Positions 22,298 through 61,965 of a stretch of 64,000 nt of DNA are shown piece after piece. The translations under genes and the position numbers were made by a program. Every line of letters starts with the position of its first letter. The first letter of the stretch is position 1. This DNA comes from Octopus vulgaris (lineage: Eukaryota): contig OX597841.1 of NCBI GenBank assembly GCA_951406725.2, forward strand, positions 12,834,001-12,898,000, in the 5' to 3' direction. The notes beneath the pieces were generated by a model. It had not been told where the DNA came from and did not search any database. It worked only from the letters and a program-made list of their open reading frames with translations.

Positions 22298-22336
<39 letters not shown>

Positions 22337-23155: not shown

Positions 23156-23202
23156 TGAATGTTAAAAGATGATAAAGATGACAATGATGATGATGATGAT
23201 GC

Positions 23203-25209: not shown

Positions 25210-25608
25210 GCGCAGGAGTGGCTGTGTGGTAAGTAGTTTGCTAACCAACCACATGGTTCTGGGTTCAGTCCCACTGCGTGGCATCTTGGGCAAGTGTCTT
25301 CTGCTATAGCCCCGGGCCGACCAATGCCTTGTGAGTGGATTTGGTAGACGGAAACTGAAAGAAGCCTGTCGTATATATGTATATGTGTGTGTATCTGTGT
25401 GTCTGTGTTTGTCCTCCTAGCATTGCTTGACAACCGATGCTGGTGTGTTTACGTCCCCGTCACTTAGCGGTTCGGCAAAAGAGACTGATAGAATAAGTAC
25501 TGGGCTTACAAAGAATAAGTCCCGGGGTCGATTTGCTCGACTAAAGGCGGTGCTCCAGCATGGCCGCAGTCAAATAACTGAAACAAGTAAAAGAGTAAAA
25601 GAGTAAAA
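25210..25608 (+). mobile_element. SINE family A, full length
   Basis: A/B boxes, CORE-like block and 3' tail. Confidence 0.88.
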
Positions 25609-25817
25609 GCAGGAAGAGAATATCTGCAGGACAGGAACTGCAGAAGACCCCTAATGCTAAAAGAATGGTAAATATCTGGTCAGTTAGGGAGAGACTTAAA
25701 GACAAAAGGGTCAGAAGAACCAAGGAGGTGAAGGGGGAATGAATTTTGGGTTTTTTATTGAAAGCAACAACAAGAAAAGGTAAAAACGTATTAAAAAGAA
25801 ACTGTGGAAGTCATAAC

Positions 25818-25909
25818 CTGGTGGAAAGACTGAGGAGACACTTCGAAAAAGGTAAACTGGTTCCAGGCAGGGAGGACCGACTTGACGACTTTGGTCGGTT
25901 GATTAACCT
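25818..25909 (-). CDS. OGFOD1: OGFOD1 exon 6
   Basis: (E)[30 protein letters not shown]; contains the distal iron-binding His. Confidence 0.96.
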
Positions 25910-26035
25910 CTGAAAATACACAAAGAAAACATGACAAGTTCACAATTAATTAACATTTCACACATCCATGATGATGATGATGATGATGATGATGATATCA
26001 TTAACGCTTCAACATTCATATTATTCTGTCAAATT

Positions 26036-26440
26036 AAGACGGCGAGCTGGCAGAAACATTAGCACGCCGGGCGAAATTCTGATCGATATTTCGTCTGCCG
26101 TTACGTTCTGAGTTCAAATTCCGCCGAGGTCGACTTTGCCTTTCATCCTTTTGAGGTCGATTAAATTAAGTAGTAGTTACACACTGGGGTCGATGTAATC
26201 AACTTAATCCGTTTGTCTGTCCTTGTTTGTCCCCTCTGTGTTTAGCCCCTTGTGGGTAGTAAAAGAAATAGGTATTTTGCTCATTGCTGCGTTGTGAGTT
26301 CAAATTCTGCCAAGGCCAACTTAGCCTTTCGTCCTTTCGGGGGGGGGGGGAATTAAGTACCAGTTACACGCTGGGGTCAATGTAATCAACTATCCCCCTC
26401 CCCCAAATTTCAGGCCTTGTGCCTTATAATAGAAAGGATT
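26036..26440 (+). mobile_element. SINE family B, dimeric
   Basis: Matches other family B copies. Confidence 0.85.
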
Positions 26441-26502
26441 ATTCTGTCAAACATAATACTTATTTAATCTCACTGTTTTTAATTAATCTGCTTTATCTTG
26501 TG

Positions 26503-26722
26503 ACTCTCTTTTTACTCCTTTACTTGTTTCAGTCATTTGACTGCGGCCATGCTGGAGCAACGCCTTTAATCGAGCAACTCGACCCCGGAACTTATTCTTT
26601 TGTAAGCCCAGTATTTTATTCTATCGGTCTCTTTTGCCGAACCGCTAAGTGACGGGGACGTAAACACACCAGCATCAGTTGTCAAGCAATGCTAGGGGGA
26701 CAAACACAGACACATACACATA

Positions 26723-26753
<31 letters not shown>

Positions 26754-26924
26754 ACATACATATATACGACGGGCTTCTTTCAGTTTCCGTCTACCAAATC
26801 CACTCACAAGGCTTTGGTCAGCCTGAGGCTATAGTAGAAGACACTTGCCCAGGGTGCCACGCAGTGGGACTGAACCCGGAACCATGTGGTTGGTAAGCAA
26901 GCTACTTACCACACAGCCACTCCT
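26503..26924 (-). mobile_element. SINE family A, full length, inverted relative to 25210-25608
   Basis: Reverse complement of the family A sequence. Confidence 0.88.
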
Positions 26925-27336
26925 GGAATGGTATTGTAAGGTTGGTGTGAGAGGCCAGATCCGGCCAGTTTGAACATAAAACATGGAATATTTTGGCCAG
27001 TTTAAATGCCAAAGTGTGAAGGTGGTCAGCTGGCAGAACCATTAAGACACCAGACAAAACGCTTAGCAGCAGTTTGTCAGTCTTCAGGTTCTGAGTTCAA
27101 ATTCTGCCAAAGTTGATTTAACTTTCACCTTTTCATAGTTTAACTAGTTTAGATTAATTTTAGGGTCTCTAATACACCCTGGGTTCATCGTTGTTGTCAT
27201 CATCACCATTTTCATGTCCAGGTTTCCATGCTTGCATGAGTCACATGAAACTTGCTGAGGCAAAATATCTTCTCTACTCAGATGCTCTCCCTTCCACCAA
27301 CCCTCACTTGTGTCTAAACAAAGCAATATTTTCTCT

Positions 27337-27613
27337 GTGGAGGCACATGGCCTAGTGGTTAGAGTAGCAGACTCGCGGTAGAGGGATTGCGGGTTCGAAT
27401 CTCAGACTGGGCGATGTGTGTGTTTATGAGTGAAACACCTAAGCTCCATGCGGCTCCAGAAGAAGGTAATGGCGAACTTCTGCTGACTCTTTCACCACAA
27501 CTTTCACTCTTTCCTCCTGCATCTTGCAGCTCACCTGCGACGGACTGGCATCCTGTCCAGGTGGGAAACCTATACGCCAAAGAAACCGGGAAACTGGCCC
27601 TTATGAGCCAGGC
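27337..27613 (+). mobile_element. tRNA-derived SINE family E (V-domain-like)
   Basis: A-box tggcctagtgg, B-box ggttcgaatct, and gacggactggcatcctgtccagg block; relative at 46110-46356 on the minus strand. Confidence 0.75.
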
Positions 27614-27754
27614 AAAACATGAACAGTTCAACAGCCAAACCTGTTTTGCATGTCTGATCCCTAATGGATGCCCCTGTTTTTGCATAAATGGTGATTTTGG
27701 CCTTTGTTTGCAGTCATCATGCAAATGTCAAGACTAAGAAACACAAACACACAC

Positions 27755-27980
27755 ATACATATATACACTCCTATACATATATATACTCCTATACATAAAT
27801 ATACACCCCTATACATACATATACACTCCTATACATACATATACACTCCTATACATACATATACACTCCTATACATATAAATATATATATATATACACCC
27901 CTATACACATATATACACTCCTATACATATATATACCCTCCTATACATACATATATACTCCTATACATACATATACACTC

Positions 27981-28025
<45 letters not shown>

Positions 28026-28045
28026 CACCCCTATACATACATATA
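27755..28045. repeat. ~22-bp minisatellite (catacatatatacactcctata)n
   Basis: Directly visible tandem units. Confidence 0.85.
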
Positions 28046-28158
28046 CATTAAAGCCGAAACATCATTGATCAATACGTCTTCTGGATCGGGTCTGACCTGG
28101 AGCTGAACAACAACACCAGTAACATGTTGACTGTGAGATCAAATGAGAGCTGACTTAC

Positions 28159-28275
28159 CATTTGTTGTGAACAAGTCCAATGTGCCACCATCACTGGGGC
28201 CCCAGGGAGGCACGAGGTAGAGGATGAAGGCAATCCGTCGTCCTTCCAGTTCATCGTCATGGCACAGCAAGACAT
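28159..28275 (-). CDS. OGFOD1: OGFOD1 exon 5
   Basis: (D)[38 protein letters not shown]; HxD iron-binding motif. Confidence 0.98.
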
Positions 28276-28885
28276 CTGCAAGGGCAACAGAGAGGAATAC
28301 GAGTGTCATAGGCTTGTGTAAAACAGCAAAGAGTTTATGAAGGCAGCGGCAATGGGTAGACAGAGGACATTTCTGTGCCAAACAGGCAGGGAGTTAGAGG
28401 ACAACCCTGTCTTGGACAGACAGACAGACAGCACCACCACCACCACCACTGACCACCAATGACTTTCCCCAGACACAACAGAAATATTAATATTTCTATA
28501 ATAAGAATTCTGATATTAAAAATATAAAGACGAAGCATGGAAATAAAACATGTAATTGCCGCAACTGATGTTTATCTCCCTTAAGGCAATCCTGTCTAAG
28601 GAGAAATGTCATATATAAAGTCGCAGTTTCAACCCGTAATGAATCAAAGAAGATATACAGAGGAAGTACAACTGATAGTAAGACTAGATATAGGGGTCAC
28701 ACAAATTCATTTATTAATCAAGAAACAAAAAACTCAACCGCACCAGCTACCCATGTTAATAAATAAAAAATGCAGGACTCACTAGCATACCACCATGACC
28801 CACCAGTAAGATGTGTGGGAGCCAACAAGTTAATTATTTAATTGAATTTAATGAAATTGTGACAAGTGATGTTTGAACTTGTTAC

Positions 28886-28986
28886 CTGTGTATTCGTAGA
28901 TGGAACAGAAAAGATCCACAACACTGGTTAATTCTACGTTGGTCACTTTCTTCATCCATTCTAAGACATCTGTGTAAAATAACTTC
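28886..28986 (-). CDS. OGFOD1: OGFOD1 exon 4
   Basis: (R)KLFYTDVLEWMKKVTNVELTSVVDLFCSIYEYT. Confidence 0.93.
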
Positions 28987-29238
28987 CTGAGAAATAGAAG
29001 ACACATTTGACAGAAGATTAAAGAGTGAAGACAGGCAATAGGAGACAGACGACAGAAGACAAAAGATTGAAGACTGAAGAGTGAAAGTAGATTATAGAAG
29101 ACTAACAAAAGATTGAAGACTGAAGACTGAAGATAGAAGACTGGAGATAGACTACCAAAGATTGAAGACAGAAGACTGAAGACAGAGGGAATGGACAAAA
29201 GGATGTCAAGTTTCTAAAAAAAAATGTCTGCAACTCAC

Positions 29239-29285
29239 CTGAAAGCAGTGATTTGTGGGCTGGTATGCTGTGCCAGGTCATAACT
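29239..29285 (-). CDS. OGFOD1: OGFOD1 exon 3
   Basis: SYDLAQHTSPQITAF(R); 47-nt exon with ccag acceptor and gtgagt donor; phase fits its neighbours. Confidence 0.9.
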
Positions 29286-29306
29286 CTGGTAGGAAGAAAT
29301 AGGATG

Positions 29307-29341
<35 letters not shown>

Positions 29342-30129
29342 TATAATAATAATAATAATTATGATAATGATAAGGAAGTAAGGAAGAAGGCTCATGATGT
29401 GAGAGTGTGTTGACAATGAGGAAAACAGTCTGCAATGATGAAGATGATCATTATCATCATCGTTTAACATCCGCCTCTCATGCTGGCATGGGTTGGACAG
29501 TTTGACTGAGGACTGGTGAGCCAGGAGGCTGCACCTGGCTCCATTCTGATCTGGCAAAGTTTCTACAGCTGGATGCCCTTCCTAACGCCAACCACTCTGA
29601 GAGTGTAGTGGGTGCTTTTTATGTGTCACCGGCATGAGGGCCAGTCAGGTGGTACTGGCATCAACCATGCTCAAATGGTGCTTTTTCGTGCTACCTGTAC
29701 AGGAGCCAGTCAGGCAGCACTGGCAACGACCTAACAAGTCAAGCAAATGATGATTGAACCCCTGTTTGTCAATGTTAGAAAAGCAACATGAGAAAAGCAT
29801 CCAGCCCATGCTGTGACGTGGTTGGCATTTGGAAGGGCATCCAGCTGTAAAAATCATGCCAAAACTGACCTCACCTGCACTGGTGCCACGTTAAAAGCAT
29901 TGAGTCCACTTTGCAGAATGGTTGATGTTAGGAAGGGCATCCAGCCGTAAAAAAAAACTGTGAAAACAGACACAGTAGACTGGGGTAGTCTTCTACCTGG
30001 CCAGCTCCTGTCATCCGTCTTACCCATGCATGCATGGAAGATGCACATTAAATGATGATGATGATGATACCTTGTGAAAATGTGACACATCCAAGAGAAT
30101 TTCAGAAACAAGATGGAGATTAAAGATGA

Positions 30130-31085
30130 AACAAGTGGAAAGTGAAAGGGATGCTGGGGCAATACTTCAGAGAAATCAAAGGGAAAGACAAGAGCAACAC
30201 CTGGAGGTGGCTAAGTGATCTGAAAGGATGCACTGAGGCATTGACATGCAGCATCCAGGAACAAGCTCTCAGAACTAATGACACCAGGTGCCAAACAGGT
30301 AAGAGCAGTGAATCACCCCTTTGTAGGATGTCATCATCATCATCATCATCCGTTGTCCATGCTGGCATGGGTTGGACGGTTTGACCAGGGCTGGCAAGCT
30401 GAAAGGCTGCACCAGACCCCAGTCTGATTTGGCACGGTTTCTACAGCTGGATGCCCTTCATAATGCCAACCACTCTGAAAGTGTAATGGGTGCTTTTATG
30501 TGCCAACGGCAAAGGTGCTATTTGCAAGAAGACACCGGTATGTGCCACAACTGTGGTTTTACTTGGCTTCATGGGTCTTCTTCTCAAGCAAGACATAATA
30601 CCAAAAGGTCTCAGTCATTGCCTCCGTGGGGCCAAATGCTTGAAAAACAAAACAAAAAACAATCTCACCTATTGTGAGCAGGTGTAGCAGACTGGCTCAG
30701 AAAGAATACAAAAGGAGGCACGATAACATGGCCAGGTATGTTCCTTGGAGATTGTATGAGAAGCATGGTCTTGAAAAGACATTGGAATGGTGCAAGCATA
30801 AACCAGAGGGGTCCCTGAGAATAATATGGGGATTAGATCTTATGCAATTCCGTGTGGTTCAGTGATTGATGATTGGAGGAAAGTAAGCATTGTTGAGGTT
30901 GATAAAAGGAAGAAAGAAACCAAGACCAGAGATATTGCCAACCTGGGGAATGTAGGAGTCGATGACAAAGAACTGGGAAAGATTGAGAAGTACAAGAAAC
31001 CCGTAAAAGACAAGATTAGATGAATGGGGGCAATGAAGGAAGTGAATATCATCCCAGTTGTTGGTGGGGCACTGAGAACATTAAC
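30130..31085 (+). mobile_element. R4/Dong-like non-LTR retrotransposon 3' fragment (zinc knuckle + restriction-like endonuclease), decayed and interrupted by a family C SINE (30331-30640)
   Basis: GQYFREI...QEQALRTN...SPLCRM / SRCSRLAQKEYKRRHD / KIEKYK / IPVVGGAL motifs; related copy at 45025-45340. Confidence 0.8.
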
Positions 31086-31378
31086 AACCAATTCCAGTTT
31101 CTCCTTAGTCACAATTTATGTTCCTAACACTAGCTTAATGATAACGAAGTTAATTTACTAAATTCTTTGTTATATCTAAAATTAATTAAAAGAAACACAG
31201 AGCATCTCAACAGAAATAGGGTAACAAAAGGGTTAAGAAGAAAAATAATCAGCAGAAGACATGAGAAGGAGACCTCAATGTGGTCACTCTATATGCTAGA
31301 AATAATAGCCTAAATTTCCTTCAATCCACACCCTTCCAACTGCTCCTAATGTGCATCTGCCCAAATGTAGAAGTGTGT

Positions 31379-31580
31379 TTAACCCTCTTGATTCGAACCT
31401 GGCTAAAACCACCTCTGGCTCTGAGTACAAATGTCTTGTTTTCATAAGTTCTCAGTTAAAATCCTCCACCAAACGTTAGTCACAATTTATGTTCCTAACA
31501 CTAGCTGAATGATAACTAAGTTATTTTACTAAATTCTTTGTTAGATTTAAAATTAATTGAAAGAGACACGAAAGGGTTAA
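31379..31580. mobile_element. piggyBac-like MITE
   Basis: ttaaccct ... agggttaa termini; partial copy at 31100-31236. Confidence 0.6.
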
Positions 31581-31799
31581 CGTCCACTCTCGATGCTGGT
31601 ATGGGTTGGACAGTTTGACACGGGGCTGGCTAGGCAAGGAGCTGTTCAGACTCCAGTTGTCTTGGAGGGCCTGTGAATACCGTCAACACTGCCTCTCACT
31701 CCAACACCCAGAAATTAAATGAAAGAACCCCCAAAAAAGTACAAGACAGAGCAGTGAAAAGAGCCATAGGGTGGCGGTCGAGCCCGTAGCCCTTTTTAC

Positions 31800-31954
31800 C
31801 TGGTGGAAGTTGTATAAGTCATTGTTTTTCTCATTGAAAGTGACTTCCTGTAGTTCTCCCTGTAATCTGTCCAAGCAATGATCCTCTGTGATGAACTCAG
31901 GCAACACACAGTGCACAAACGGACTGGAATCAATCAGATTTTCACAAGAAGGAC
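31800..31954 (-). CDS. OGFOD1: OGFOD1 exon 2
   Basis: PSCENLIDSSPFVHCVLPEFITEDHCLDRLQGELQEVTFNEKNNDLYNFHQ, matching OGFOD1 PF.HC.I..F...EK.NDLY.F.Q. Confidence 0.96.
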
Positions 31955-32127
31955 CTGGAAAACAACAAAGCAAAAACGTTTTTTTTTAAAATTTCAATTA
32001 TAAATGTTACATTATCATTATTATTATTATTATTTAAGGCAGTGATACGGGTGGATTAGGAAAAACAAAGGAAAACAAAACAGACACAATTATTATTTAC
32101 AGAAAAGAGGGAAAACAATCGTTTAAT

Positions 32128-32413
32128 GGCAATCTTTCGTCTCTAGTAGACCTTTCCGTCGATTTCCGTAAAAAACATTTCTTTTTTTACATATGGGCTT
32201 GCGGGAACTTTTGAAGATCACACACACACACACACATGTACATCAATGCTTCCCATGCACGGTAACTTGAAAAGAACTTCCCTCGTCATACAATCGCTTT
32301 CTCTTAGTCTCTTTCGCTCTCATTACTTCAAAAGTTCCCGCAAGCCCATATGTAAAAAGAAAATGTTTTTTACGGAAATCGACGGAAAGGTCTACTAGAG
32401 GCGAAAGATCGCC
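32128..32413. mobile_element. Fold-back MITE with ~88-bp inverted arms, in OGFOD1 intron 1
   Basis: Arms 32128-32216 and 32326-32413 are near-perfect reverse complements; TTAA near both ends. Confidence 0.8.
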
Positions 32414-32452
32414 CGTTTAATTAAATAAATAAATGAAATGTTTTTACTCAAC

Positions 32453-32777
32453 TGGAATGTTTGTTGTTGTCAGAGGTGGTGGTCACGTTGTTGTTGTTGG
32501 TGGTGGTGGTGGTGGCGATCGCGGTGTCATTGGCACTGGTGCGGCACGTTCGGATTGTCGGTGATGCAGCAGCACTGGCTGAGCTAAACTCCCGCCTCAA
32601 ATGCTCGATCAGGTCCTCTTCCATGTAACGGGCGTTGATGGAGAGGCCATGCAAGGAAGACCTCTCTTCCTCGTCCGTCACACAATCTTTCTTCTTCTTC
32701 TTGTAAGGTTTCGGCTGCTCGCTGGACGCCTCCGACACGCCACGCTTGCCCATCACCTGCTGCTTCTCCCTCGACAT
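32453..32777 (-). CDS. OGFOD1: OGFOD1 exon 1 (coding part); prolyl 3-hydroxylase OGFOD1/Tpa1, spliced CDS 2025 nt = 674 aa
   Basis: MSREKQQVMGKRG...KPYKKKKK (NLS-like)...SINARY; the phase-1 donor gttgag is weak but is the nearest one restoring frame; the second ATG is an alternative start. Confidence 0.8.
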
Positions 32778-32975
32778 TCCGTCACTGTATTTATAAAATA
32801 TAGAATATAATAATAATAAAGGGGGTTTAATGCTTCCACATGGCCATCAAGCCTCAGTCACAACACAACCCACACATGGGTACGAAGCGGAGTAGGATCC
32901 TTAGTTTCGTATCAAACTACGACAGCACGTACGCGCACACACATAAAATCATACACGCTCTAATATGTATGTATG

Positions 32976-33721: not shown

Positions 33722-35470
33722 TCATCATCATCGTTTAACGTCCGCTTTCCATGCTAGCATGGGTTGGACGGTTCAACTGGGGTCTGGCAAGCACGAAGGC
33801 TGCACCAGGCCAGTCAGATCTGGCAGTGTTTCTACTGCTGGATGCCCTTCCTAACGCCAACCACTCCGAGAGTGTAGTGGGTGATTTTATGTGCCACCGA
33901 CACAGGTGCCAGGCGAGGCTGGCAGACGGCCACGCTCGGATGGTGTTTTTATGTGCCACCGACACAGGTGCCAGACGAGGCTGGCAGACGGCCATGCTCG
34001 GATGGTGTTTTTATGTGCCACCGACACAGGTACCAGACGAGGCTGGCAGACGGCCACGCTCGGATGGTGTTTTTATGTGCCACCGACAAGGTACCAGACG
34101 AGGCTGGCAGACGGCCACGCTCGGATGGTGTTTTTATGTGCCACCGACACAGGTGCTAGACGAGGGTGGCAGACGGCCACGCTCGGATGGTGTTTTTATG
34201 TGCCACCGATACAGGTACCAGACGAGGCTGGCAGACGGCCACGCTCGGATGGTGTTTTTATGTGCCACCGACACAGGTGCCAGACGAGGCTGGCAGACGG
34301 CCACGCTCGGATGGTGTTTTTATGTGCCACCGACACAGGTGCCAGACGAGGCTGGCAGACGGCCACGCTCGGATGGTGTTTTTATGTGCCACCGACACAG
34401 GTACCAGACGAGGCTGGCAGACGGCCACACTCGGATGGTGTTTTTATGTGCCACCGACACAGGTGCCAGACGAGGCTGGCAGACGGCCACGCTCGGATGG
34501 TGTTTTTATGTGCCACCGACACAGGTACCAGACGAGGCTGGCAGACGGCCACGCTCGGATGGTGTTTTTATGTGCCACCGACACAGGTACCAGACGAGGC
34601 TGGCAGACGGCCACGCTCGGATGGTGTTTTTATGTGCCACCGACACAGGTACCAGACGAGGCTGGCAGACGGCCACGCTCGGATGGTGTTTTTTATGTGC
34701 CACCGACACAGGTGCTAGACGAGGGTGGCAGACGGCCACGCTCGGATGGTGTTTTTATGTGCCACCGATACAGGTACCAGACGAGGCTGGCAGACGGCCA
34801 CGCTCGGATGGTGTTTTTATGTGCCACCGACACAGGTGCCAGACGAGGCTGGCAGACGGCCACGCTCGGATGGTGTTTTTATGTGCCACCGACACAGGTG
34901 CCAGACGAGGCTGGCAGACGGCCACGCTCGGATGGTGTTTTTATGTGCCACCGACACAGGTACCAGACGAGGCTGGCAGACGGCCACACTCGGATGGTGT
35001 TTTTATGTGCCACCGACACAGGTGCCAGACGAGGCTGGCAGACGGCCACGCTCGGATGGTGTTTTTATGTGCCACCGACACAGGTACCAGACGAGGCTGG
35101 CAGACGGCCACGCTCGGATGGTGTTTTTATGTGCCACCGACACAGGTACCAGACGAGGCTGGCAGACGGCCACGCTCGGATGGTGTTTTTATGTGCCACC
35201 GACACAGGTACCAGACGAGGCTGGCAGACGGCCACGCTCGGATGGTGTTTTTATGTGCCACCGACACAGGTGCCAGACGAGGCTGGCAGACGGCCACGCT
35301 CGGATGGTGTTTTTATGTGCCACCGACACAGGTGCTAGACAAGGGTGGCGAACGGCCACGCTCGGATGGTGTTTGTTACGTGCCCTCAGCACGGAGGCCA
35401 GTTGATGCGGTACTGGCTACGGTCACGCTTGGATGGTTTTCTTATGTGCCACTGGCACTGGTACCATAAA
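33722..35470 (-). mobile_element. SINE family C copy with an internal 62-bp tandem expansion
   Basis: (CAT)n tail and conserved family C block at 33722-33885, followed by the tandem array. Confidence 0.8.
33886..35390. repeat. 62-bp minisatellite, ~24 copies
   Basis: Unit ttttatgtgccaccgacacaggtRccagacgaggctggcagacggccacgctcggatggtgt. Confidence 0.97.
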
Positions 35471-41311: not shown

Positions 41312-41937
41312 GTATATGTATGTATGTATGTATATGTATGTATATATTTATATATGTATATATAATATATGTGTGTGTTCAGAGGGGGTGAGAGTAATTG
41401 ATGTATATACAGGCATACATACATACATATATGCTTATGTACAACACACACAAACACACATAAATGTAAGCGCATGGCAGTGTGTGTGTGTGCGTGCATA
41501 CGTGTGTGTGTGTGTGTGTCAGAGAGAGAGAATGCGTTGAGTAGGATAATGAAGATTCTACAGTTGCTTTTAAATACCAATCTACTAACGAGCTGAAACA
41601 GAAGCCAGTTTGGCGACGCATAGACACCAAAATACACACACACACACACACACACCCCTCCAAAACACACATATACACACAGACAGACAGACAAACAGGC
41701 AGCAACACATAACCGGTGACTGTCCAATCAGACAAAAGATTGTCTCGGCCTGTTTTCATTTCCACCCCCACCCCCCATAAAGCTCCCCCCCTCACTTATA
41801 TAATACCCCCATTTTGAACGAGTGTTCCACAACCCGAGCGTGAGCATCCACTCTCTCTCTCTCATAGCAACAGTGTCCACTCACTCTGTCCGCATCAGAC
41901 TGAAGGCCCTCTCTGTGTGGCGCAACCGTCAACCGCG

Positions 41938-41943
41938 TATAAG
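41938..41943 (+). promoter_or_regulatory. Candidate TATA box of the M4 protease gene
   Basis: TATAAG ~130 nt upstream of the ATG in unique sequence; CCAAT at ~41724. Confidence 0.45.
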
Positions 41944-42070
41944 GCCCTACACCTGGAAAGTTGGCTGTTTTAAACATTTGCCTCTGTCCCCTGGCTCAAA
42001 GTCCACTGTTCCATCCTTGCTGTGACTCTGCTTGACCAATTCTGACTGACCACTGTGACACAGAGAGACG

Positions 42071-42119
42071 ATGGCTACCTGTAGAGTTGGGGTCCTGCTC
42101 CTGTTTCTCGTAATACTTG
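42071..42119 (+). CDS. M4 metalloprotease exon 1 (signal peptide N-terminal part)
   Basis: gacgATGG Kozak context; MATCRVGVLLLFLVIL + G then a consensus gtgagt donor; phase 1 joins exon 2 (G|CG = Ala). Confidence 0.8.
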
Positions 42120-42172
42120 GTGAGTTAAACGTACAATTTCTTGGTGTAAGTGTGTGTCTGTATGTACATGCA

Positions 42173-42263
<91 letters not shown>

Positions 42264-42690
42264 GTGTGTGTGTCCATCATCGCTTGACAACCGATGCTGG
42301 TGTGTTTACATCCCTGTAACTTAGCGGTTCTACAAAAGAGACTGATAGAATAAGTACTAGGCTCACAAAGAATAAGTCCTGGGAGTCGATTTGCTCGACT
42401 AAAGGCAGTGCTCCAGCATGGCCGCAGTCAAATGACTGAAACAGATAAAAGACTAAAAGAAAAAAATGTTAGCAAAATTTCAGGAAGTATGGAAGACCTG
42501 AAGGATGTTCGTTTCCTGACAGCGAACAACTGATGCAGGCAGTTGAGTCCATGCTTCATCGATTCTGAAACTGTAAAAATATGTTTCTGAAAGTCATGGG
42601 TATATTTATAGCCATGTGGATGTGGATGTGCATATGTGTGCCTCTCTCTCTCTCTCACTCTGTATTTATATAAATATGTGTGTATTATAG

Positions 42691-42734
<44 letters not shown>

Positions 42735-42877
42735 AATTAGAAAAAAAAACACCTTTTATCAATTCAATAATGAAAAATTACATCTTATAGAAAGATTAAA
42801 TATAAGATAAAACATATAACGATGATAAAGTAAAGTGCAAAATTCCCTGTAAGTTTGGAATTAGATTCCCTCATATT

Positions 42878-42909
<32 letters not shown>

Positions 42910-43101
42910 AATGGCGGTGCCCCAGCATGGCCACAGCTCATGAGCTGAAACTAGAATCAATCAATCAATCAATCATATGTATGTATATTCATCAAGTTGC
43001 CAGCTTGCAAAACCAATTAAGGGGGAAATTAATACAAAAGCTTATAATTTTTTCCTTATGTATAAAATACATTTAAATATATATTATCATATATATATGT
43101 A

Positions 43102-43155
<54 letters not shown>

Positions 43156-43289
43156 AAATATGTATAATGATATATTTAAAAATGTTAATTAGACAATTTT
43201 CATATTTATATATTAGATAATAATATAATAGATATTTAGAAATATTTCTTTTTAAATTTAAATAGCTGTCTCACATATATACAGACAAA

Positions 43290-43345
43290 AGGAGATAGAG
43301 AGAAAATTAGACAGGCAGACAGACGAGCAGTCAGGCAAGAGAGAA

Positions 43346-43404
<59 letters not shown>

Positions 43405-43424
43405 CAGACAGACAGACAGACAGA

Positions 43425-43488
<64 letters not shown>

Positions 43489-43505
43489 CAGATAGACAGA
43501 CAGAC

Positions 43506-43600
<95 letters not shown>

Positions 43601-43649
43601 TAGATAGATAGAGAGAGAGATAGATAGACAGACATATAGATAAGTAGAC

Positions 43650-43700
<51 letters not shown>

Positions 43701-43762
43701 TAGATAGATAGATAGAGTGATGGACAGAGATGGATGGACAGACAGACAGAGAGACAGACATA

Positions 43763-43830
<68 letters not shown>

Positions 43831-43980
43831 TAGATATAGATAGATAGAGTGATGGACAGAGATGGATGGACAGACAGACAGAGGTGGAGAGAGAGAGAGA
43901 GAGAGAGAGATAAATAAATAGATGGATGGATGAATAAAAACAGACAGACAGACAGACAGACGGGCAGACAGACAGAGAAT
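43290..43980. repeat. (GA)n/(GATA)n/(GACA)n compound microsatellite
   Basis: Directly visible. Confidence 0.95.
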
Positions 43981-44067
43981 GAAAAGTGAAAGAAAAAGTA
44001 AAGTCGATTGTTTTATGTGACACATGTATATTCTGATCTGATAGAATTTAACGAAGCAAAACATTGA

Positions 44068-44136
<69 letters not shown>

Positions 44137-46061
44137 AGTCTCCGGTCTAACACTTGAAAGGTTATTTAGTTGAGTTTCTCCATAATAAACCCAGCTCCTA
44201 TTAGAATTCGTTATTAGTAATTATTCCAAGGCTGTCGTTAGCTGGCAGATTCATTACTGTGCCCCTGTAAAAATGCTAAGTGGTATTTCAGCTCTCTTTA
44301 CATTCTGAGTTCAAAATCCCCCAAGGTCGACTTTTCCTTTCATCCCCTTCGGGGTCAATAAAATCAAACCTGGGTGCCAAACCCCTAATTAATGAAGTTA
44401 ACATTTTTGTTAACAATTTCAATTTTAAGTTAACATTGGAAATCATTATTGGACTAATTAAATTCCATTAACACAAATCTACTTGAGTTAACTTCATTTG
44501 AATTGAAGTTAAAGGATTTTATAGTTTTGGCCCTTTTTAAAGGTGTTTTTAGGTGATTCTAGAGCAAAAACTGGTTTGGGGGGGAGGGTTTCTATAATTA
44601 AAATAAACATTAACGGTTTATCGATAACTTCTCTTACATTTTTAAAGAATTAACAAATTGATGTTTATCAAAGTTTACTTTTTGGTTAACAGATTAACGG
44701 TTAACAAAGTTAACATTTTGATTAACAGTACCCACCTTTAAACAAAATATGAACCAGCTGTTCTGGGGTTGATGTAATTGATTTATCTCCCGCCACAGAA
44801 ATTGCTGGTCTTGTGCCAAAATTTGAAACCCACAATTATTGCATTTCTGCCTCTTCTGTCTTATTGAACAAAGCATTTTTCTTAATGAGGAAAAGTTGCA
44901 CACCTCACATCTTTAGATATTGATCTTCTACTGGTGATTATAAAAACCCTTATAGCTTTCAATATCCAAAGACCCGTGACCTAATGGTGGAGGTGTTGCT
45001 CTCACAGTCTAGTGATTTGGGGTCAGAGAAATTGAAGGGGAAAATAAGACCAACACCTGGACATGGCTAAATGGTCTGAAAGGATGCCCTGATGCCCTGA
45101 TTTATAGCATCCAGGAACAAGCTCTGAGAACTAATTGTACCAAGTTCCGCATAGATAAGAGCAGTGAATCACCCCTTTGCAGCGAAAATGGAACAATCTC
45201 ATATGTTGAGAGTGAATCTAGCAAACTGGCCCAAAACCACAATAGAAGGAGGCATGATAATGTGGCAAAGTTTGTTCACTGGAGACTGAGTGAGGAATAC
45301 AGTTTTGGAAGAATATTGAAATGGAATGAACCAACACCAGATTTCAAGTGATGTTGGGGGAAGCAAACACAAAGACACACACATAAATATATACAAACAT
45401 ATATATATACACAACAGGCTTCTTTCAGTTTCCGTCTAACAAATCCCCTCATAAGGCTTTGGTTGGCCCAAGGCTATAGTAAAAGACACTTGACCAAGGT
45501 GCCATGCAGTGGGATTGAACCCAGAACCATGTGGTTAGGAAGCAAGCTTCTTACCACACAGCTATGATAGACCAGTCCAAGCTGTATACCACCCCTGGGG
45601 TGCTGTACTCATGTTGTCCTTCAGCTTTAGGGATCTTACCAGAATGAGGATCCTGGATCCTGATGTCAACTCTGTCCATCATTTACTACAAATGCTCCTT
45701 TGTCCCCTATACTCCAGGTAAGAGAGGTGGGGGGAAGTCATATTTTTCTGGGGTACATCACATTTCTGCTTAAATGTTAAGGGATTGCTGGAACAATTCT
45801 TTGGCATTATTAAAGCAAAGTTCCCTCCACAGCATAAATATCAGCAGATGTTTAACTTGTTTACGACAAAACTCTTTTATTCTACCACACCTAATATACG
45901 TCCTGCCATTGTCACTTCAAACGAATATAAATTCGGTCATAACAACACACGTAATTCTTATCAAAGCAGTCGTGGCTATAATAACTCTGTAACAACTGTT
46001 TTAATAGTAGGGAGAATTAGTTCAGTTAATAGTAGTTTAATTAACGAGGATAATGAAGATG

Positions 46062-46094
<33 letters not shown>

Positions 46095-46357
46095 TTATAA
46101 TAAATAAATACGCCCTTTTAAAGCCTAGCCAGGCTCATGGGCCTGGTTTCCCAGTTTCAATGGTCTATGTGTTCTCCATCTGGACGGGACGACAGTCCAT
46201 CGCAGTGTTACTCATTTTTGCCAGCTGAGTGGACTGGAGCAATGTGAAATGAAGTGTTTTGCTCAAGAACACAGCACGTCGCCCGGTCCAGGAATCGAAA
46301 CCACAATCTTACAATCATGGTGCTGGCACCCTAACCACTAAACCACATGCCTCCACA

Positions 46358-46433
<76 letters not shown>

Positions 46434-46856
46434 CGAAAGGCAAAGTCACCCTCAGTGGAATTTGAACTCAGAACCTAGTGACAGGCAAAATACTGCAAAG
46501 CTTTATGCCTGATGTGCTAACGATTCTGCCAGCTCACTGCCATAACATTAATAATAATAATAATAACGATAATGATAATAATAATAATAATAATGATGAT
46601 GATAATAAGAGCAACAAGTTATAATAATGATAATAACTGGATAATGTCTTTTCCCATATCAAAAGATAACTAAAGCCCTTCACCTCTCCTCACATCCACC
46701 CTTTCTCTCTCTCTCTCTCTCCAGCATTTTATCACATAAATTCTAACTAATAATTATGATGATTGTGGTAATAAGAGAATTAGTACATACTTTAGTAATA
46801 GTAATAATAATATTAGTATTGATATTATTATTATTGTTGTTATTATTATTATTATT

Positions 46857-47013
46857 AGGAGTGGCTGTGTGGTAAGTGGCTTGCTTACCAACCACTTGGT
46901 TCTGGGTTCAGTCCAACTGTGTGACACCTTGGGCAAGTGTCTTCTACTATAGCCTTGTGAGTGGATTTGGTAGATGGAAACTAAAAGAAGCCTGCCATAT
47001 ATATGTATGTATG

Positions 47014-47045
<32 letters not shown>

Positions 47046-47255
47046 AATATGTTTGTGTATCTGTGTTTGTCTCCCCATTATCACTTGACAGCTGACGCTG
47101 GTGTGTTTACGTTCCCGTAACTTAGCAGTTTGGCAAAAGAGACCGATAGAATAAGTAATAGGCTTACAAAGAATAAGTCCTGGGGTCGATTTCTTCGACT
47201 AAAGGCAGTGCTCCAGCATGGCCACAGTCACATGACTGAAACAAGTAAAAGAGAG
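46857..47255 (+). mobile_element. SINE family A
   Basis: Matches other copies. Confidence 0.85.
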
Positions 47256-47419
47256 TTACGTCCATCAAAACCTCAAAGCCACAAGATAATGCATGATTAA
47301 TAAAAGACTTGTGAATAAAAAAACCATTCCTTTCGACAGAAAACTGCTGAGGCCGAAGGGTTAAAGATCTTTTTCTCATAATATTCTCTTCAAATATTAT
47401 TATTATTTTTTTCTTCTTT

Positions 47420-48415
47420 AAGGCAGTGAGCTGACAGAATCATTAGTGCAATGGACAAAATACTTAACAGTATTTCGCCCATCAAAGGCAGCAAGCTGGC
47501 AGAAGCGCTATTGCACCGGGCGAAATTCTGATCGATATTTCGTCTGCCGTTACGTTCTGAGTTCAAATTCCGCCGAGGTCGACTTTGCCTTTCATCCTTT
47601 CGGGGTTGATTAAATTAAGTACCAGTTACGCACTGGGGTGGATGTAATCAACTTAATGCGTTTGTCTGTCCTTGTTTGTCCCCGTGTTTAGCCCCTTGTA
47701 GGTAGTAAAGAAATAGGTATTTTGTCTGCCGTTATGTTCTGAGTTCAAATTCCGCCAAGGTCGACTTTGCCTTTCATCCTTTCGGGGGTCGATAGAATAA
47801 GTACCAGTTAAAGCCTGGGGAGGTCGATGTAATCAACTTAATACCTATGTCTGTCCATGTTTGTCCTCTCTGTATTTAGCCCCTTGTGGGTAGTAAAGAA
47901 ATAGGTATTTCGTCTGCCGCTACATTCTGAGTTCAAATTCCGCCGAGGTTGACTTTGCCTTTCATCCTTTCAGAGTCGATAAATTAAGTACCAGTTACAC
48001 ACTGGGGTCGATGTAATCGACTTAATGCATTTGTCTGTCCTCGTGTTTGTCCCCTTGTGGGTAGTAAAGAAATAGGTATTTTGTCTGCCGTTATGTTCTG
48101 AGTTCAAATTCCGCCAAGGTTGACTTTACCTTTCATCCTTTCGGGGTCGATAAATTAAGTACCAGTTACGCACTGAGGTCGATGTAATCGACTTAATCCC
48201 TTTGTCTGTCCTTGTTTGTCCTCTCTGTGTTTAGCCCCTTGTGGGTAGTAAAGAAATAGGTATTTTGTCTGCTGTTATGTTCTGAGTTCAAATTCCGCCA
48301 TGGTCGACTTTACCTTTTATGCTTTCGGGGTCGATAGAATAAGTATCAGTTAAAGACTGGGGTCTATGTAACTGACTCGCCCCCTCCCCTAAAGTTGTGG
48401 CAAAATTTGAAACCA
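47420..48415 (+). mobile_element. SINE family B with five tandem internal units
   Basis: Units starting tatttYgtctgcYg at ~47536, 47718, 47905, 48077 and 48261. Confidence 0.88.
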
Positions 48416-48448
48416 TTATTATCTTCCTCTTTCTCTCTCTCTCTCTAG

Positions 48449-50295
48449 CGTTCCTGGGGAGCCATTGTGTGACGTCAGCGAAATGGCGACAGGCTCGGGA
48501 CGTGTTCCTGTCCAACGTGGAGACGCTGAGTGAGATGGTGAAGCGACAGCCGAGTCACATGATCACCACACGTGACCTGTTTGGTCTAACCAAGGACGAG
48601 GATGTCGAATTAACAGATTCAGCACCAAGCGTACAAGGAACAGACATCAAAAAGTACCACGAGACTTACAGAGGACTTCCCGTGTTTGATGCCACCCTCA
48701 CCGTGGAGACGGATGCCAAAACCCATGTGTACACGGGCCAGGTGACAGGTAAACTGGTTCAAAACCTTGATGATGACATCAACTCTACAATACCAAATGT
48801 CACTGAACAGGAAGCTGTGCAGTTAGCTCTGATGTATGGCAAATTCCCTATGGAAGGGGCCCGCATAGACAGTGACAAACCTCAGTTGATGATCTATGTG
48901 AAGGACAGTATCGGAATTCTGGTTTACCGAGTTCAATACTTCGCTGTGTCTGATGGGGAAAATTATCGATTTTGCATGATGATCAATGCAAAGAATGGAA
49001 GGCTTGTAGACAAATGGAACACACTAGAAACTGCGAGAGAGAAATATCAGATGAAAGGCATAGGAGGGAACAAATTGATAGGGAAGAAAACATACGGGGA
49101 ACTGCTCCCTTATTTGCAGGTGAGGCGGACGGGAGAAGATTGCTATTTCCGCAACAGCTTCGTGATCGTTGTGAACCTGAATGGAAAGGAGTTTCTCTCA
49201 GATGAGGATGAAAAAACTTATCATACCAACTGCAAGAATGGTGCAAAGGATGAAATAAATGGAGCTTATTCCCCGATAAATGATGCTCTTTTCTACGGTA
49301 CCATTATCCACAATATGTACATGGAATGGGTGAAAGTGCCCCCGAAGAAACAATTGCCTATGATCTTTCGGGTGCACTACGGACACAACACGGCCGTGGC
49401 TAACTACAACGGCCGAAACTTTACGTTTGGTGATGGTGATGACACCTTCCTGCCTCTTGTCGGCCTCGACATAGTTGCACACGAAGTGACACACTGCTTC
49501 ACAGAAGAACATTCAAACCTGGTGTACGAGGGTCAGTCAGGGGGCATCGACGAATCCTTCAGTGACCTGGCCGGAGAGGCAGCCGAATATTTTGAAAAAG
49601 GAAGCAACGACTGGGAAGCTGGAGGCGGCGTCACCAAAAATTCGATACGCAAACTTTGTAAACAATCGGAGGATGGTAAATCAATCACAGATGCTGGAAA
49701 CATCTCCGATGATATGGATGTGCACTACCTCAGCGGAGTGTTCAACCGGTTCTACTGTCTGTTAGCCAATTACAAAGACTGGAGTGTTAAGAAAGTATTC
49801 CAGATAACGGCACACAGCAACCGTTTCTACTGGCATCCAAAAACCAACTTCACAGAGGCTGCTTGTGACATCATGAAGTCCACTTATGATCTCGGCTATG
49901 ATACAGCTTCTGTACAGGAATCTTTTGCAAAAGTAGGCATCAAAGTCTGCGATATATCTATGTACATCCGCAACATTCATGAGAACTCAGTAGTTGAGGG
50001 TCTGAGTTCAGTTCCTGGAGAGAAAATCTTGTTTAAACTCAATGTGAAAACGGTATCATTAAAGAAAGTGAAAGTTATTACTTTTGCTGGAACCGGAGAA
50101 GTAGATGTTTATGCTTGCTACAAAAGAAGTCGGTGCTCTGAACGTTTGACAAAATGGCGATCAAGTCAGCCCGGAACGGACCAATTCCTTTCGATTAGAC
50201 ATCCAAAAGTGGGAAAATACTTCGTAACGCTAAAACCAAAAACAAGGTCATATTTTGCAAATGTAACAATCAAAGTGAATTATGAAAAAGATTAA
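48449..50295 (+). CDS. Secreted peptidase family M4 (thermolysin/vibriolysin-like neutral zinc metalloprotease) exon 2: FTP + PepSY propeptide, catalytic domain, C-terminal PPC-like domain
   Basis: HEVTH (49480-49494) + GGIDESFSD zinc ligands; INGAYSPINDA, VHYG, TFGDG..F.PLV.LD, DVHY.SGVFNR motifs as in LasB/vibriolysin; (CT)n-tag acceptor at 48448; AATAAA at 50309. Confidence 0.96.
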
Positions 50296-50969: not shown

Positions 50970-52115
50970 TTACATCTCTGCATGAAGAGATACATGCGTA
51001 GTTAAGTGACTTTTTTGAGAGAATGATTTGCCACAGACATCACAGTGATATGGCTTCTCCCCTGTATGGACACGTTTGTGTGTTGTCAGTTCACCACTCT
51101 GAGAAAAAGATGAACCACAGATATCACAGTGGTATGGTTTCTCTCCCGTATGAACACGTATGTGTCTGGTTAATTCACCACTCTGCGAGAACGGCTTGCC
51201 ACAGATATCGCAATGGTATGGATTCTCTCCCGTATGAATACGCCTGTGTTTAGTCAAGACACTGTTTTCAGAGAATGATTTACCACAGATATCGCAGTTG
51301 TAAGGCCTCTCTCCTGTGTGAATTCGTATGTGTCTTGTTAAATCGCTCCCCCTTGAGAATGATTTACCACAGATATCACACTGGTATATTTTCTCTTCTG
51401 CATGAAAATACTTATGTATGGTTAATTCGCTGCTTCCATAGAATGATTTACCACAGATATCACAATGAAATGGCTTCTCTCCTGTATGAACACGTTTGTG
51501 CTTTGTTAACTCACCACTCTGAGAGAACGACTTGTCACAGACATCGCATTGATATGGTTTTTCCCCTGTGTGAATGCGCTTGTGAGTAATCAGGTTGCTA
51601 CTGCCCGAGCAGGACTTACCACAGATATCACAGTGATATGGTTTCTCTCCTGTATGAATACGCTTATGAGTGGTTAGGTTACCTTTACGAGAGAACGATT
51701 TACCACAGATGTCGCAACGATAGGGTTTTTCTCCCGTGTGAATACGGTTGTGAATAGTCAGTTCCCCACTCTGAGAGAATGATTTACCACAGATGTCACA
51801 GCAATAGGGTCTCTCCCCTGTATGAATCCGTTTATGAGTGGTGAGGTTACCTTTTTGAGAGAAAGACACACCACATACATCGCAGTGAAACGGCTTCTCT
51901 CCTGTATGAATACGTTTGTGTTTAGTTAAATCACCATTTTCAGTGAATGATTTGCCACAGATATCACACTGATGGGACTTCTCTCCGGCAGGAATGCGCT
52001 TGAGTTTTGTTAAGTCACTACTTCCAGAGAACGGCTTACCATGGACATCACCATAGGATGACTTTCCAATCACTTTTGGCATATCTTCAGGATAAAACTC
52101 AATTAAGTTTCTCAT
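50970..52115 (-). CDS. C2H2 zinc-finger protein with 12 intact fingers and one degenerate finger
   Basis: Tandem C-x2-C-x12-H-x3-H with TGEKP linkers; first in-frame ATG at 52115 (the ORF track starts at TTG 52124); candidate acceptor at 52432. Confidence 0.93.
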
Positions 52116-52549
52116 ATAATCCAAAGAGGATATTTTCCCTATTTTCCTTTTATTGTATATTCCTCACAAATATTTCTACTGCTCTATTTCCAGTAACCAT
52201 AATCTGTCAATATTTGAAGATGCTGTAAAATTCTTTGCAAAATCATCCAAGTTTAATTAAAAAGGAAAACGAATTTGAAGAAGAGAATTGATGTCATTCC
52301 ACTTATTTCAACATAATTCTTTGGAATTATCAAATCCGTTCCGCATCACATTTTCTTTTAGTCTTTCGAAGATGATAAATATTGACGACGCATCTGATGA
52401 AGAATGAATCAATGCCAAGGTCATCCAATATTCTGAAACAAGATAAAGAAACAATAATGTAAGATATGAAGGAAACAGATTTGAAATGCAAAGATATAAA
52501 AACAAAGGATATTTTTTTTCAGGGAATTTCTTTGGAGAATCTGTTGATG

Positions 52550-59919: not shown

Positions 59920-60705
59920 CTGATGTCCGTGCTAGCAAGGTGCAAAGAGCACCATACGAGTGTGATCGTTGCCAGAGCGGCTAACCGGCTTCCGTGCCAG
60001 TGGCACATAAAAGGGCATCATTCGAGTGTGATCGTTACCAGCATTGCCTTACTGGCACCTGTGCCCCATGCTAGTAGGGTGCTAAGAGCACCATCCGAGT
60101 GTGATCGTTGCCAGAGTGGCTGGCTTCAGTGCCGGTGGCATGTAAGAGGCACCATTCGAGCATGATCGTTACCAACGTCGCTTCACTGGCACCCGTGCCG
60201 GTGGCATGTGTAAAAGATTCGAGCGAGGTTGTTGCCAGTACCACCTGACTGGCCCCCGTGCTGGTGGCACATAAAAAGTGCCAACCGATCATGACCAATG
60301 CCAGTACCCCCTGACTGGCTTCTCTGCCAGTGGCATATAAAAAGCAACATCCAAATGTGTTCATTGCCAGGCCCACCTTACTGGCTCAGGTGCTGGTGGC
60401 ACATAAAAAGTGCCAACCGATCATGACCAATGCCAGTACCTGCTGACTGGTCCCTATGCCGATGGCATGTAAAAAGCACCATCCGAACATGATCGTTGCC
60501 AGGTCCGCCTTACTGGCTCCAGTGCTAGTGGCACGTAAAAAGCATCCACTATACTCTCGGAGTGGTTGGCATTAGGAAGGGCATCCAGCTGTAGAAACTC
60601 TGCCAGATCAGATTGGAGCCTGGTGCAGCCATCTGGTTCGCCAGTCCTCTGTCAAAATCGTCCAACCCATGCTAGCATGGAAAGCAGAAGCTAAACGATG
60701 ATGAA
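59920..60705 (+). mobile_element. SINE family C, long form with diverged ~60-bp internal subrepeats
   Basis: Repeated ccRgtggcaYRtaaaaagcaccatccgagtgtgatcgttgccag modules ending in the family C tail; near copy at 62805-63291. Confidence 0.82.
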
Positions 60706-61215
60706 GAATTTAATAAAATGCCTGTCATTTTCAAAACTAACAAAATTTTGATGGAAGTTTTTAATTTGGATCACTTTAAAATTGAGAAATCGTATAATAA
60801 AACTAGGGGCCTTGTTTCAAAAGGGTTGTGCTTTTCATAATAACCTTACTACAATTATTTAGATTCCACCAAATCACGTAACTGAGAGTTTAATGTTTTG
60901 GTCCACAGCTCGTGCACACACACACACACACACACTCACACACACACATATGTACATTTTCGTTCTGGCACCAGCGTTAAACCGTCATATTTTTGCTTTC
61001 TTTGCAGGTATGCCAGCCGATTGCTCCATTACAACTTGAAGTACAAGTCAGTGCAAACTTTTCTCCTGGTGAACAGAAAATAACATCTCCACTTCATATT
61101 TCTCACGCTTGTGAACAGACGTCTGTCATATCAAAGACAAGGAACTGAACTTTTATAGATTATATTCGCAAGACATTTCTTAGCTCTTAAGAAAGAATTC
61201 TTCAAGAATATTGAT

Positions 61216-61965
61216 ATGGAGGACCTTAGTCACTTCAACAATCCTGAGACACTTGTCTTTAATGATATAGAGACAGTTACACTGACAGACAGAGATGAGA
61301 AACCTTTATATAGCGAAACATTTACCAATCAAAGAACTTTGTACGACGATATTCCTCAATATTCTTGTGAGATTTGTAGGAAAACTTTCACTTCGCAATT
61401 AGATATCTTCGTGCACAAAGAAATGCACAGTAAGGAAAAAACATTCCGCTGTGAAATTTGTGGGAAATATTTTGTGTCCACCAGTGTGTTGACAAAGCAT
61501 AAGTTGATCCACACAGGTGAAAAACCATTCCACTGCGACATCTGTGGAAAATCTTTCACTCAGAATTCTAACTTAGTCGTTCATCAAAGAATCCACACGG
61601 GGGAAAAACCGTACGAGTGTGACTTGTGTGGAAAATCTTTTGTGAACAAATCTCATCTCGTGACCCACATACGTAGCCACACTGGAGAGAAACCGTTCCA
61701 TTGTGAAATCTGCGGCAAAGCCTTCAGCACTAATTTCCTCTTAAAGACGCACAGACAGATCCACACGGGACAGAAACTTTTCCACTGCGAAATCTGCGGA
61801 AACTCTTTCACTCAAAATTCCCACCTTGTTATCCACATCCGGAGTCACACGGGAGAAAAGCCGTATCATTGTGAAATATGTGAGAAGTCCTTTTTAACAA
61901 ACAGTCATTTGAAGAGACACAAACGAATCCACAGCCGAGGGAAACCATTCAACAGCGAAACATGA
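61216..61965 (+). CDS. C2H2 zinc-finger protein with 7 fingers
   Basis: Seven C2H2 fingers with TGEKP linkers; acceptor tttgcag at 61007; candidate non-coding first exon with gtaagt donor at 57687; AATAAA downstream. Confidence 0.94.
   Translation: MEDLSHFNNPETLVFNDIETVTLTDRDEKPLYSETFTNQRTLYDDIPQYSCEICRKTFTSQLDIFVHKEMHSKEKTFRCEICGKYFVSTSVLTKHKLIHTGEKPFHCDICGKSFTQNSNLVVHQRIHTGEKPYECDLCGKSFVNKSHLVTHIRSHTGEKPFHCEICGKAFSTNFLLKTHRQIHTGQKLFHCEICGNSFTQNSHLVIHIRSHTGEKPYHCEICEKSFLTNSHLKRHKRIHSRGKPFNSET

Follow-up and report, generated by a model that had tools for sequence, protein, structure and literature searches.

A putative two-coding-exon gene for a secreted M4 zinc metalloprotease of bacterial type in Octopus vulgaris

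The window analysed here is a 64,000-nt stretch of the Octopus vulgaris genome (assembly GCA_951406725.2, contig OX597841.1, positions 12,834,001 to 12,898,000 of the forward strand); all positions below are counted from its first nucleotide. It contains a gene for a zinc metalloprotease of family M4, located among host genes and repeats (Table 1). This locus is probably a domesticated octopus gene of two coding exons for a secreted M4 protease, with a signal peptide split by a phase-1 GT-AG intron and with a short interspersed element (SINE) that came late and is incidental.

Gene structure and encoded protease

An earlier note on this DNA proposed that a 49-nt exon with a gtgagt donor joins in phase to position 48449, and this proposal holds. 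The donor junction reads TTG/GTGAGT, the acceptor AG occupies 48447-48448, and the joined 42119/48449 frame comprises 631 open codons for a 631-aa protein, with an N-terminus identical to that of P0001, an annotated Octopus sinensis "elastase" in NCBI/UniRef that also matches the long open reading frame (ORF) at 48376-50295. The + strand ahead of 48380 offers 3094 ATG..GT candidates of phase 1; scored against the N-termini of four other octopod proteins, exon 42071-42119 ranked first among them (28.25, with at most 6.5 for candidates at other ATGs), and it was also first among the 32 candidates having a GTRAG donor. Homologous N-termini were found by alignment in two O. bimaculoides proteins, one O. 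vulgaris and one Argonauta protein. The GT-AG ends, consensus donor, pyrimidine tract and kept reading frame are those of a U2-type intron. On sequence grounds, the 42119/48449 splice model is correct, and we infer that the 49-nt coding exon placed 6.3 kb upstream in annotated P0001 reflects transcript support in the annotation.

The ATG at 42071 is flanked by an A at -3 and a G at +4. The size of 49 nt is right for the coding part of exon 1 but not for the whole exon, which must continue upstream of 42071 as a 5' untranslated region. No ATG was found in 41700-42070, an acceptor-like AG lies near 41867, and region 41690-42170 has no repeat match elsewhere within the window. The remaining 1.85 kb was described as intronless; 48449-50295 is colinear with bacterial vibriolysin and LasB.

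The product is predicted to be an intact precursor of a vibriolysin/pseudolysin-type M4 zinc protease, with all zinc-binding and catalytic residues present. Pfam Peptidase_M4 (64.9 bits, cut-off 22.4) and M4_C (88 bits, cut-off 24.4) scored above the curated cut-offs, while FTP (19.5 bits, cut-off 21) and PepSY (16.2 bits, cut-off 24) scored below them; the Pfam scan of the protease gave no match to PPC, and its alignment reaches the end of vibriolysin. The zinc motif is HEVTH (residues 361-365). Zinc ligands H361, H365 and E385, the base E362, and residues Y376, R417 and H442 align with LasB, and none of the 12 aligned rows departs from H361, E362, H365, Y376, E385, D389, R417 or H442. In M4 enzymes the third zinc ligand, Glu, sits in a GxxNExxSD-like motif; in the octopus protease E385, S388 and D389 of this motif are invariant and the Asn position is occupied by Asp. 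The best Foldseek matches of a structure model (pLDDT 80) were to vibriolysin MCP-02 (E 8e-27, TM-score 0.88 normalised by target) and LasB; the fold also matched the MCP-02 propeptide and, more weakly, a collagenase PPC domain. ESM Atlas contained no structure for the octopus protease.

The signal peptide formed by the joined exons was called typical, and heuristic features together with homology agree: it contains a basic residue (R5), a best 11-residue hydropathy window of 3.57 (residues 8-18), and the small residues T25 and A27 at -3 and -1, with cleavage predicted after A27. The protein carries six N-glycosylation sequons and 12 cysteines. Judging from what is known of the family, splicing would restore the signal peptide and thus allow the protein to enter the endoplasmic reticulum. 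By analogy with vibriolysin and LasB, the propeptide would chaperone and inhibit the protease until self-cleavage near residue 211, and the mature enzyme would act extracellularly, most likely in digestion (digestive gland).

The SINE element and the acceptor region

The 3' part of the intron is occupied by a SINE-like element, delineated by repeat comparisons and by motif calls based on the A- and B-box consensus. Its head (47485-47535) is followed by a 184-nt module present 4.6 times (47536-48371, 83% matches) and by a tail whose terminal ATT repeats reach 48422. Its description as "five tandem SINE units" had to be replaced by that of a single element, as the presence of only one head and one tail rules out five separate tandem SINEs. 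Since other copies in the window carry one to three module cores each, internal repetition appears to be a trait of this SINE family, which has 14 loci and makes up 6.4% of the window. The modules are 81-91% identical to other window copies. Dispersed copies, A/B-box-like motifs and the ATT tail are features of a tRNA-derived SINE; ARAGORN found no tRNA in it, and tRNA and Rfam scans gave no match within the splice-model region. SINEs are reported to account for about 40% of octopus transposable element counts and probably represent octopus-specific expansions (PMC8967140).

A truncated extra head lies just upstream of the element, and the ATT repeats and pyrimidines flanking it loosely resemble the sequence behind the tail, possibly as a target-site duplication or through low complexity. 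The CT-repeat tract said to follow directly after the SINE units is present as a pyrimidine tract, but its perfect (TC)n run is only 15 nt long (one of 13 runs of at least six units on both strands of the window) and follows the tail, 50 nt past the last module. Three likely acceptors in the neighbouring host gene have ordinary tracts by eye, a sample too small for a rate. A literature search for CT-repeat acceptors in invertebrates returned nothing relevant.

A role of the SINE or the CT repeat in creating the intron is not supported, given the N-terminus common to O. bimaculoides, O. vulgaris and Argonauta: shared among octopods, the spliced N-terminus predates an element whose modules are still so similar to their siblings. 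Most likely, the SINE and the CT run are late and incidental. The SINE would have been inserted much later into an existing 3' splice region and tolerated there, and the CT run would be a product of the slippage usual for pyrimidine tracts where a genome is rich in microsatellites.

Several further features of the intron may mislead annotation. Read in frame, 48376-48448 mimics a hydrophobic signal peptide, with a hydropathy of 2.9 in its best 10-residue window, and can thereby deceive annotation based on ORFs. A second decoy acceptor, in addition to the one listed in Table 1, lies at 47421 (20/25 pyrimidines). In fish, structure-bridged introns carry complementary (AC)n and (GT)n tracts at opposite intron ends; an AC/GT structure-bridged intron was rejected here, as the last 1 kb contains no AC run of at least six units despite the (TG)49 tract at the 5' end.

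The flanks of the gene are those of a host chromosome rather than of a contaminant, with zinc-finger ORFs, an OGFOD1-like gene, a U6 match and octopus-type repeats on both sides. The window as a whole is rich in microsatellites and SINEs, and arrays of 64-66-nt units at 15672-15863 and 60233-60544 look similar to the 62-nt array listed in Table 1. Additional polyadenylation-type signals follow the first AATAAA at 50399, 50431 and 50678.

Table 1. Features of the protease locus and its surroundings in the 64,000-nt window
Feature	Positions	Strand	Remarks
U6 snRNA (small nuclear RNA) match, full length	686-792	-	Rfam RF00026, 105.8 bits; gene or pseudogene
OGFOD1-like host gene, multi-exon	about 19500-32850	-	exons ~22480-22630 and 24410-24510: Ofd1_CTDD above cut-off, 2OG-FeII_Oxy_4 below
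Repeat array, 62-nt unit	33880-35384		24 repeats, 96% match; makes long spurious ORFs
TATA-like hexamer	41797-41802	+	candidate core promoter, inferred only
Exon 1, coding part	42071-42119	+	signal peptide residues 1-16 and first base of codon 17; N-terminus as in P0001
Intron, phase-1 GT-AG	42120-48448	+	6329 nt, 17% perfect microsatellite
(TG)49 microsatellite	42175-42273	+	55 nt after donor
Decoy AG	46723-46724	+	behind CT run (24/25 pyrimidines); phase-1 stop after 8 codons
Truncated extra SINE head	47419-47476	+	5' flank: ATT repeats, then pyrimidines
SINE-like element	47485-48422	+	A-box-like motif in head, B-box-like motif in each of the 184-nt modules (4.6 copies), 3' tail
Alternative in-frame AG, candidate	48393-48394	+	in SINE tail, 54 nt upstream of main acceptor; preceded by CTGAC (48372) and C-rich run
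GTG called as start by bacterial-code ORF finder	48397-48399	+	inside SINE tail
Polypyrimidine tract and acceptor AG	48422-48448	+	25/25 pyrimidines in 48422-48446; perfect TC run 48432-48446
Exon 2, coding	48449-50295	+	residues 17-27 of the signal peptide; FTP/PepSY-like propeptide; M4 catalytic domain; PPC-like domain at the C-terminus; stop
HEXXH zinc motif (H361, E362, H365)	49480-49494	+	third ligand E385 at 49552-49554
First AATAAA	50309-50314	+	13 nt after stop
C2H2 zinc-finger array	50970-52163	-	ends ~670 nt from protease stop, tail to tail
Open frame, 168 codons	53596-54102	+	by eye like end of a long interspersed element (LINE) reverse-transcriptase ORF; no match in Pfam scan
Second C2H2 zinc-finger array	61159-61965	+	

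Ancestry, intron history and alternative explanations

The suggestion that the gene descends from a bacterial ORF is supported by its M4/vibriolysin-type homology and by the horizontal gene transfer (HGT) published for the Zn-metalloproteinase (ZnMP) genes of O. bimaculoides (PMC6011040); together with the host flanks, this supports a host-embedded protease gene of putatively bacterial ancestry. Named M4 relatives occur in at least 10 bivalve and 5 gastropod genera, including Tegillarca, Pecten, Mercenaria and Solemya among bivalves and Haliotis, Pomacea and Littorina among gastropods, as well as in octopods, and relatives were also found in eukaryote transcript sets. A tree was built from 68 rows picked from 469 fetched proteins, with no thermolysin or other distant outgroup. 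The octopus protease groups with Argonauta and a scallop protein in a clade of 11 rows (support 100/99), and a second clade of 16 rows divides into bivalve, gastropod and cephalopod groups. This two-clade topology implies two paralogues older than the bivalve-cephalopod split, which is Cambrian. In the tree without Legionellales, 44 animal-side rows, 24 of them without species name, constitute one side of a 94/96 branch; the unnamed P0128 was labelled bacterial at first and reassigned to the animal side after the tree was seen. The transfer of M4 into animals is ancient, as far as these phylogenies indicate. A proteobacterial vibriolysin-type gene would have entered animals in the common ancestor of bivalves, gastropods and cephalopods or even earlier.

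Animal-like M4 groups also exist outside the two named molluscan clades (P0163, P0383, P0136, P0139, P0155, P0158, P0161, P0169, P0191 and others). Two of those in the tree come from eukaryote transcript sets, and the family may extend beyond molluscs. The motif-matching bacterial M4 loci (L004, L007, L010-L014, L018-L024 and others) belong mostly to Legionellales/Coxiellaceae or to unclassified Gammaproteobacteria.

Since the gene is of bacterial origin, its intron must be a gain. The earlier note offered two routes, an intron gained in the 5' part of a bacterial ORF or the capture of a host leader exon. The first is supported for this otherwise intronless gene; the second is not needed, because bacterial relatives have their own signal peptide ending, by eye, at the same site, and because exon 2 encodes the last 11 signal residues (17-27), the intron lying 11 residues before the predicted cleavage site. 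Besides, animal genes often have a phase-1 intron close to the cleavage site of the signal peptide, which also makes capture unnecessary. The intron would thus have been inserted into an inherited signal-peptide sequence.

Intron positions in the family were surveyed in 23 ORF calls on ENA contigs of at least 13 kb, taken as genomic. The calls start downstream of the cleavage site in 16 cases and three to four residues before it in two, and five reach -11, a distribution consistent with small 5' exons and one long exon across the family. An acceptor read-through pattern occurs at -11 in three of five informative rows and at -8 in two, P0328 having been dropped for a spurious anchor. The three rows with the -11 pattern are on long contigs and come from three different clades; as background, the residue pattern is present in 10 of 32 spliced models at -11 and in 70 of 381 over all offsets. 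An intron conserved at -11 across the family is only suggested by these counts. The case is clearer in a bivalve subclade, where eight ORF calls (P0289, P0290, P0291, P0146, P0300, P0303, P0306 and P0313) lose similarity at one propeptide Gly, equivalent to residue 66 of the octopus protease, and this Gly is preceded by Ser, Thr or Ala in 6/8 of them versus 1/10 full-length rows. The pattern points to a lineage-specific second phase-1 intron in these bivalves, which the octopus gene lacks. Gastropod-clade ORF calls P0321, P0323-P0326 and P0328 begin near residues 164-170 of the nearest gene models, a hint of a further intron in that clade. Different lineages may later have added further 5' introns.

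Capture of a leader exon is unlikely as the actual course of events. It supposes that the bacterial ORF came to lie behind a host promoter and an exon for a host signal peptide, and that this exon was spliced onto pyrimidine-rich hydrophobic codons of the bacterial signal peptide and took the place of its first half. The junction does lie within the hydrophobic core, and the acceptor region, itself hydrophobic in frame, demonstrates how such codons could double as an acceptor. Among the three Octopus paralogues the residues of exon 1 are less conserved (6-8/16) than the signal residues of exon 2 (8-10/11), but identity to Argonauta is equally low on both sides (4/16 and 4/11). No signal peptide had to be captured, given those of the bacterial relatives, and exon 1 proved unique in a search confined to the window, where no host donor gene of the leader was found. 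Another alternative, in which the SINE/CT repeat created the acceptor or now runs it, is considered highly unlikely. According to it, the SINE tail provides the branch point together with an in-frame AG, whose use would lengthen the signal peptide by 18 hydrophobic-rich residues. In the 89 nt that precede the acceptor, all 17 adenines indeed belong to the tail or its ATT end, so the branch point should be SINE-derived or lie in duplicated target sequence; YTRAY is matched only once in 48250-48470, by the CTGAC at 48372, and the AG at 48393 precedes the main acceptor by 54 nt in the same frame. Against this, the ATT run may be host target sequence, as a similar run is present at the 5' flank; it is the main AG that serves in the annotated protein, an AAG behind a C-rich tract makes a weak acceptor, and the octopod-shared N-terminus is older than the element.

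The probability that the gene is not spliced at all, being read as a single exon from the GTG at 48397 or the first in-frame ATG at 48535, or being a bacterial contaminant, is negligible. The frame is open from 48376, its read-through N-terminus is hydrophobic, and some relatives (P0002 and P0007) are annotated from internal methionines; exon 1, however, is conserved in other octopods. The GTG start is ruled out as SINE sequence: as the earlier note stated, it belongs to the SINE, and it sits in the 3' tail, a part with a matching copy at 44811. A start at ATG 48535 is ruled out as it drops the signal peptide and 18 conserved propeptide residues, and contamination is ruled out by the flanking octopus-type repeats, zinc-finger genes and multi-exon OGFOD1-like gene. 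A more elaborate scenario, rather improbable in its entirety, combines a single entry into animals before the molluscan classes split, one intron of phase 1 (or a captured leader exon) that was placed 11 codons ahead of the cleavage site and kept in distant paralogues, later introns added only 5', and a young SINE that now supplies a branch point and a second acceptor, giving two signal-peptide isoforms.

The preferred interpretation, a domesticated two-coding-exon gene of ancient bacterial descent, also has to face several opposing observations. When 49 bacterial loci were added to the tree (117 rows), a Legionellales/Coxiellaceae clade appeared inside the animal side, weakly and at different places in two quick trees, which weakens the single animal origin that the first tree had seemed to support. 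These loci had been selected by motifs from the octopus protease's own alignment, which biases the sample, and such bacteria are possible donors whose placement is unstable. Approximately unbiased (AU) tests on 57 of the 117 rows reject neither animal monophyly (p 0.71) nor the grouping of the query clade with Legionellales (p 0.61); over the free quick tree, the monophyly tree gains 15.7 and the alternative 6.7 log-likelihood units (57 rows). Because the trees contain no thermolysin outgroup, the bacteria-to-animal direction is only inferred. The surveyed intron positions derive from protein-level inference, and the octopus junction TTG/CG is no AG/G proto-splice site. The digestive role has a single-tissue basis (hepatopancreas), and term searches of the accessible parts of two octopus digestive-gland papers gave no mention of the M4 family (PMC12607849, PMC12032550). 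Finally, the published PCR of the O. bimaculoides gene ZnMP2 is no test of the junction, because the amplicon lies wholly inside exon 2.

Comparison with known systems

The gene model is already annotated, and the horizontal origin is already published for a sister species. The result therefore reproduces an annotated gene model correctly and illustrates well how a bacterial gene turned into a spliced animal gene. If the -11 intron is shared across the family, the latter would provide a series for timing intron gain after HGT and for testing insertion against exon shuffling at signal peptides. Within the openly accessible literature searched (subscription papers and bioRxiv supplements being outside its scope), no paper was found on the octopus M4 intron, the 5' intron-gain pattern or the mollusc-wide distribution of two M4 paralogues.

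The closest annotated protein, O. sinensis P0001, also has 631 residues, of which 628 are identical, including all of residues 1-198. The differences at positions 199, 293 and 377 may reflect another allele, another individual or a very close species. In O. bimaculoides, seven horizontally acquired Zn-metalloproteinases, ZnMP1-7, were attributed to bacteria-to-octopus transfer and amplified from hepatopancreas cDNA (Liu et al., 2018; PMC6011040). Of these, ZnMP2 (XP_014774680.1) is the probable orthologue of the octopus protease: its primers match exon 2 with 1 mismatch in 18 and 3 in 20 positions and bracket 48613-49156, equal to the published 544 bp. The animals in that study were bought at a Shenzhen market, and their species may differ from the name given; its text is silent on introns and signal peptides, and no other invertebrate is named among the eukaryotes of its screening panel.

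The intron can be compared with two published patterns. Around animal signal-peptide cleavage sites an excess of phase-1 introns has been described near position 20, for which both insertion and shuffling were proposed (PMC1626468, citing Tordai and Patthy, and Vibranovski et al.). The octopus intron, of phase 1 and at codon 17, fits this peak, whereas its split codon encodes Ala rather than the Gly of the proto-splice model. In Basidiomycetes, an alpha-amylase gene of bacterial origin gained spliceosomal introns after HGT (PMC3584928); compared with that case, the octopus gain is sparse, with one coding intron despite the great age of the gene.

At the protein level, the vibriolysin/pseudolysin (LasB) subgroup probably shares with the octopus protease the order of signal peptide, FTP, PepSY, M4, M4_C and (PPC), and identity to vibriolysin is 34% over 559 columns. 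The octopus protease differs from vibriolysin and LasB in being encoded by a spliced nuclear gene, in its sequons and cysteines, in having Asp for Asn before the third zinc ligand, and in its divergent PPC-like tail.

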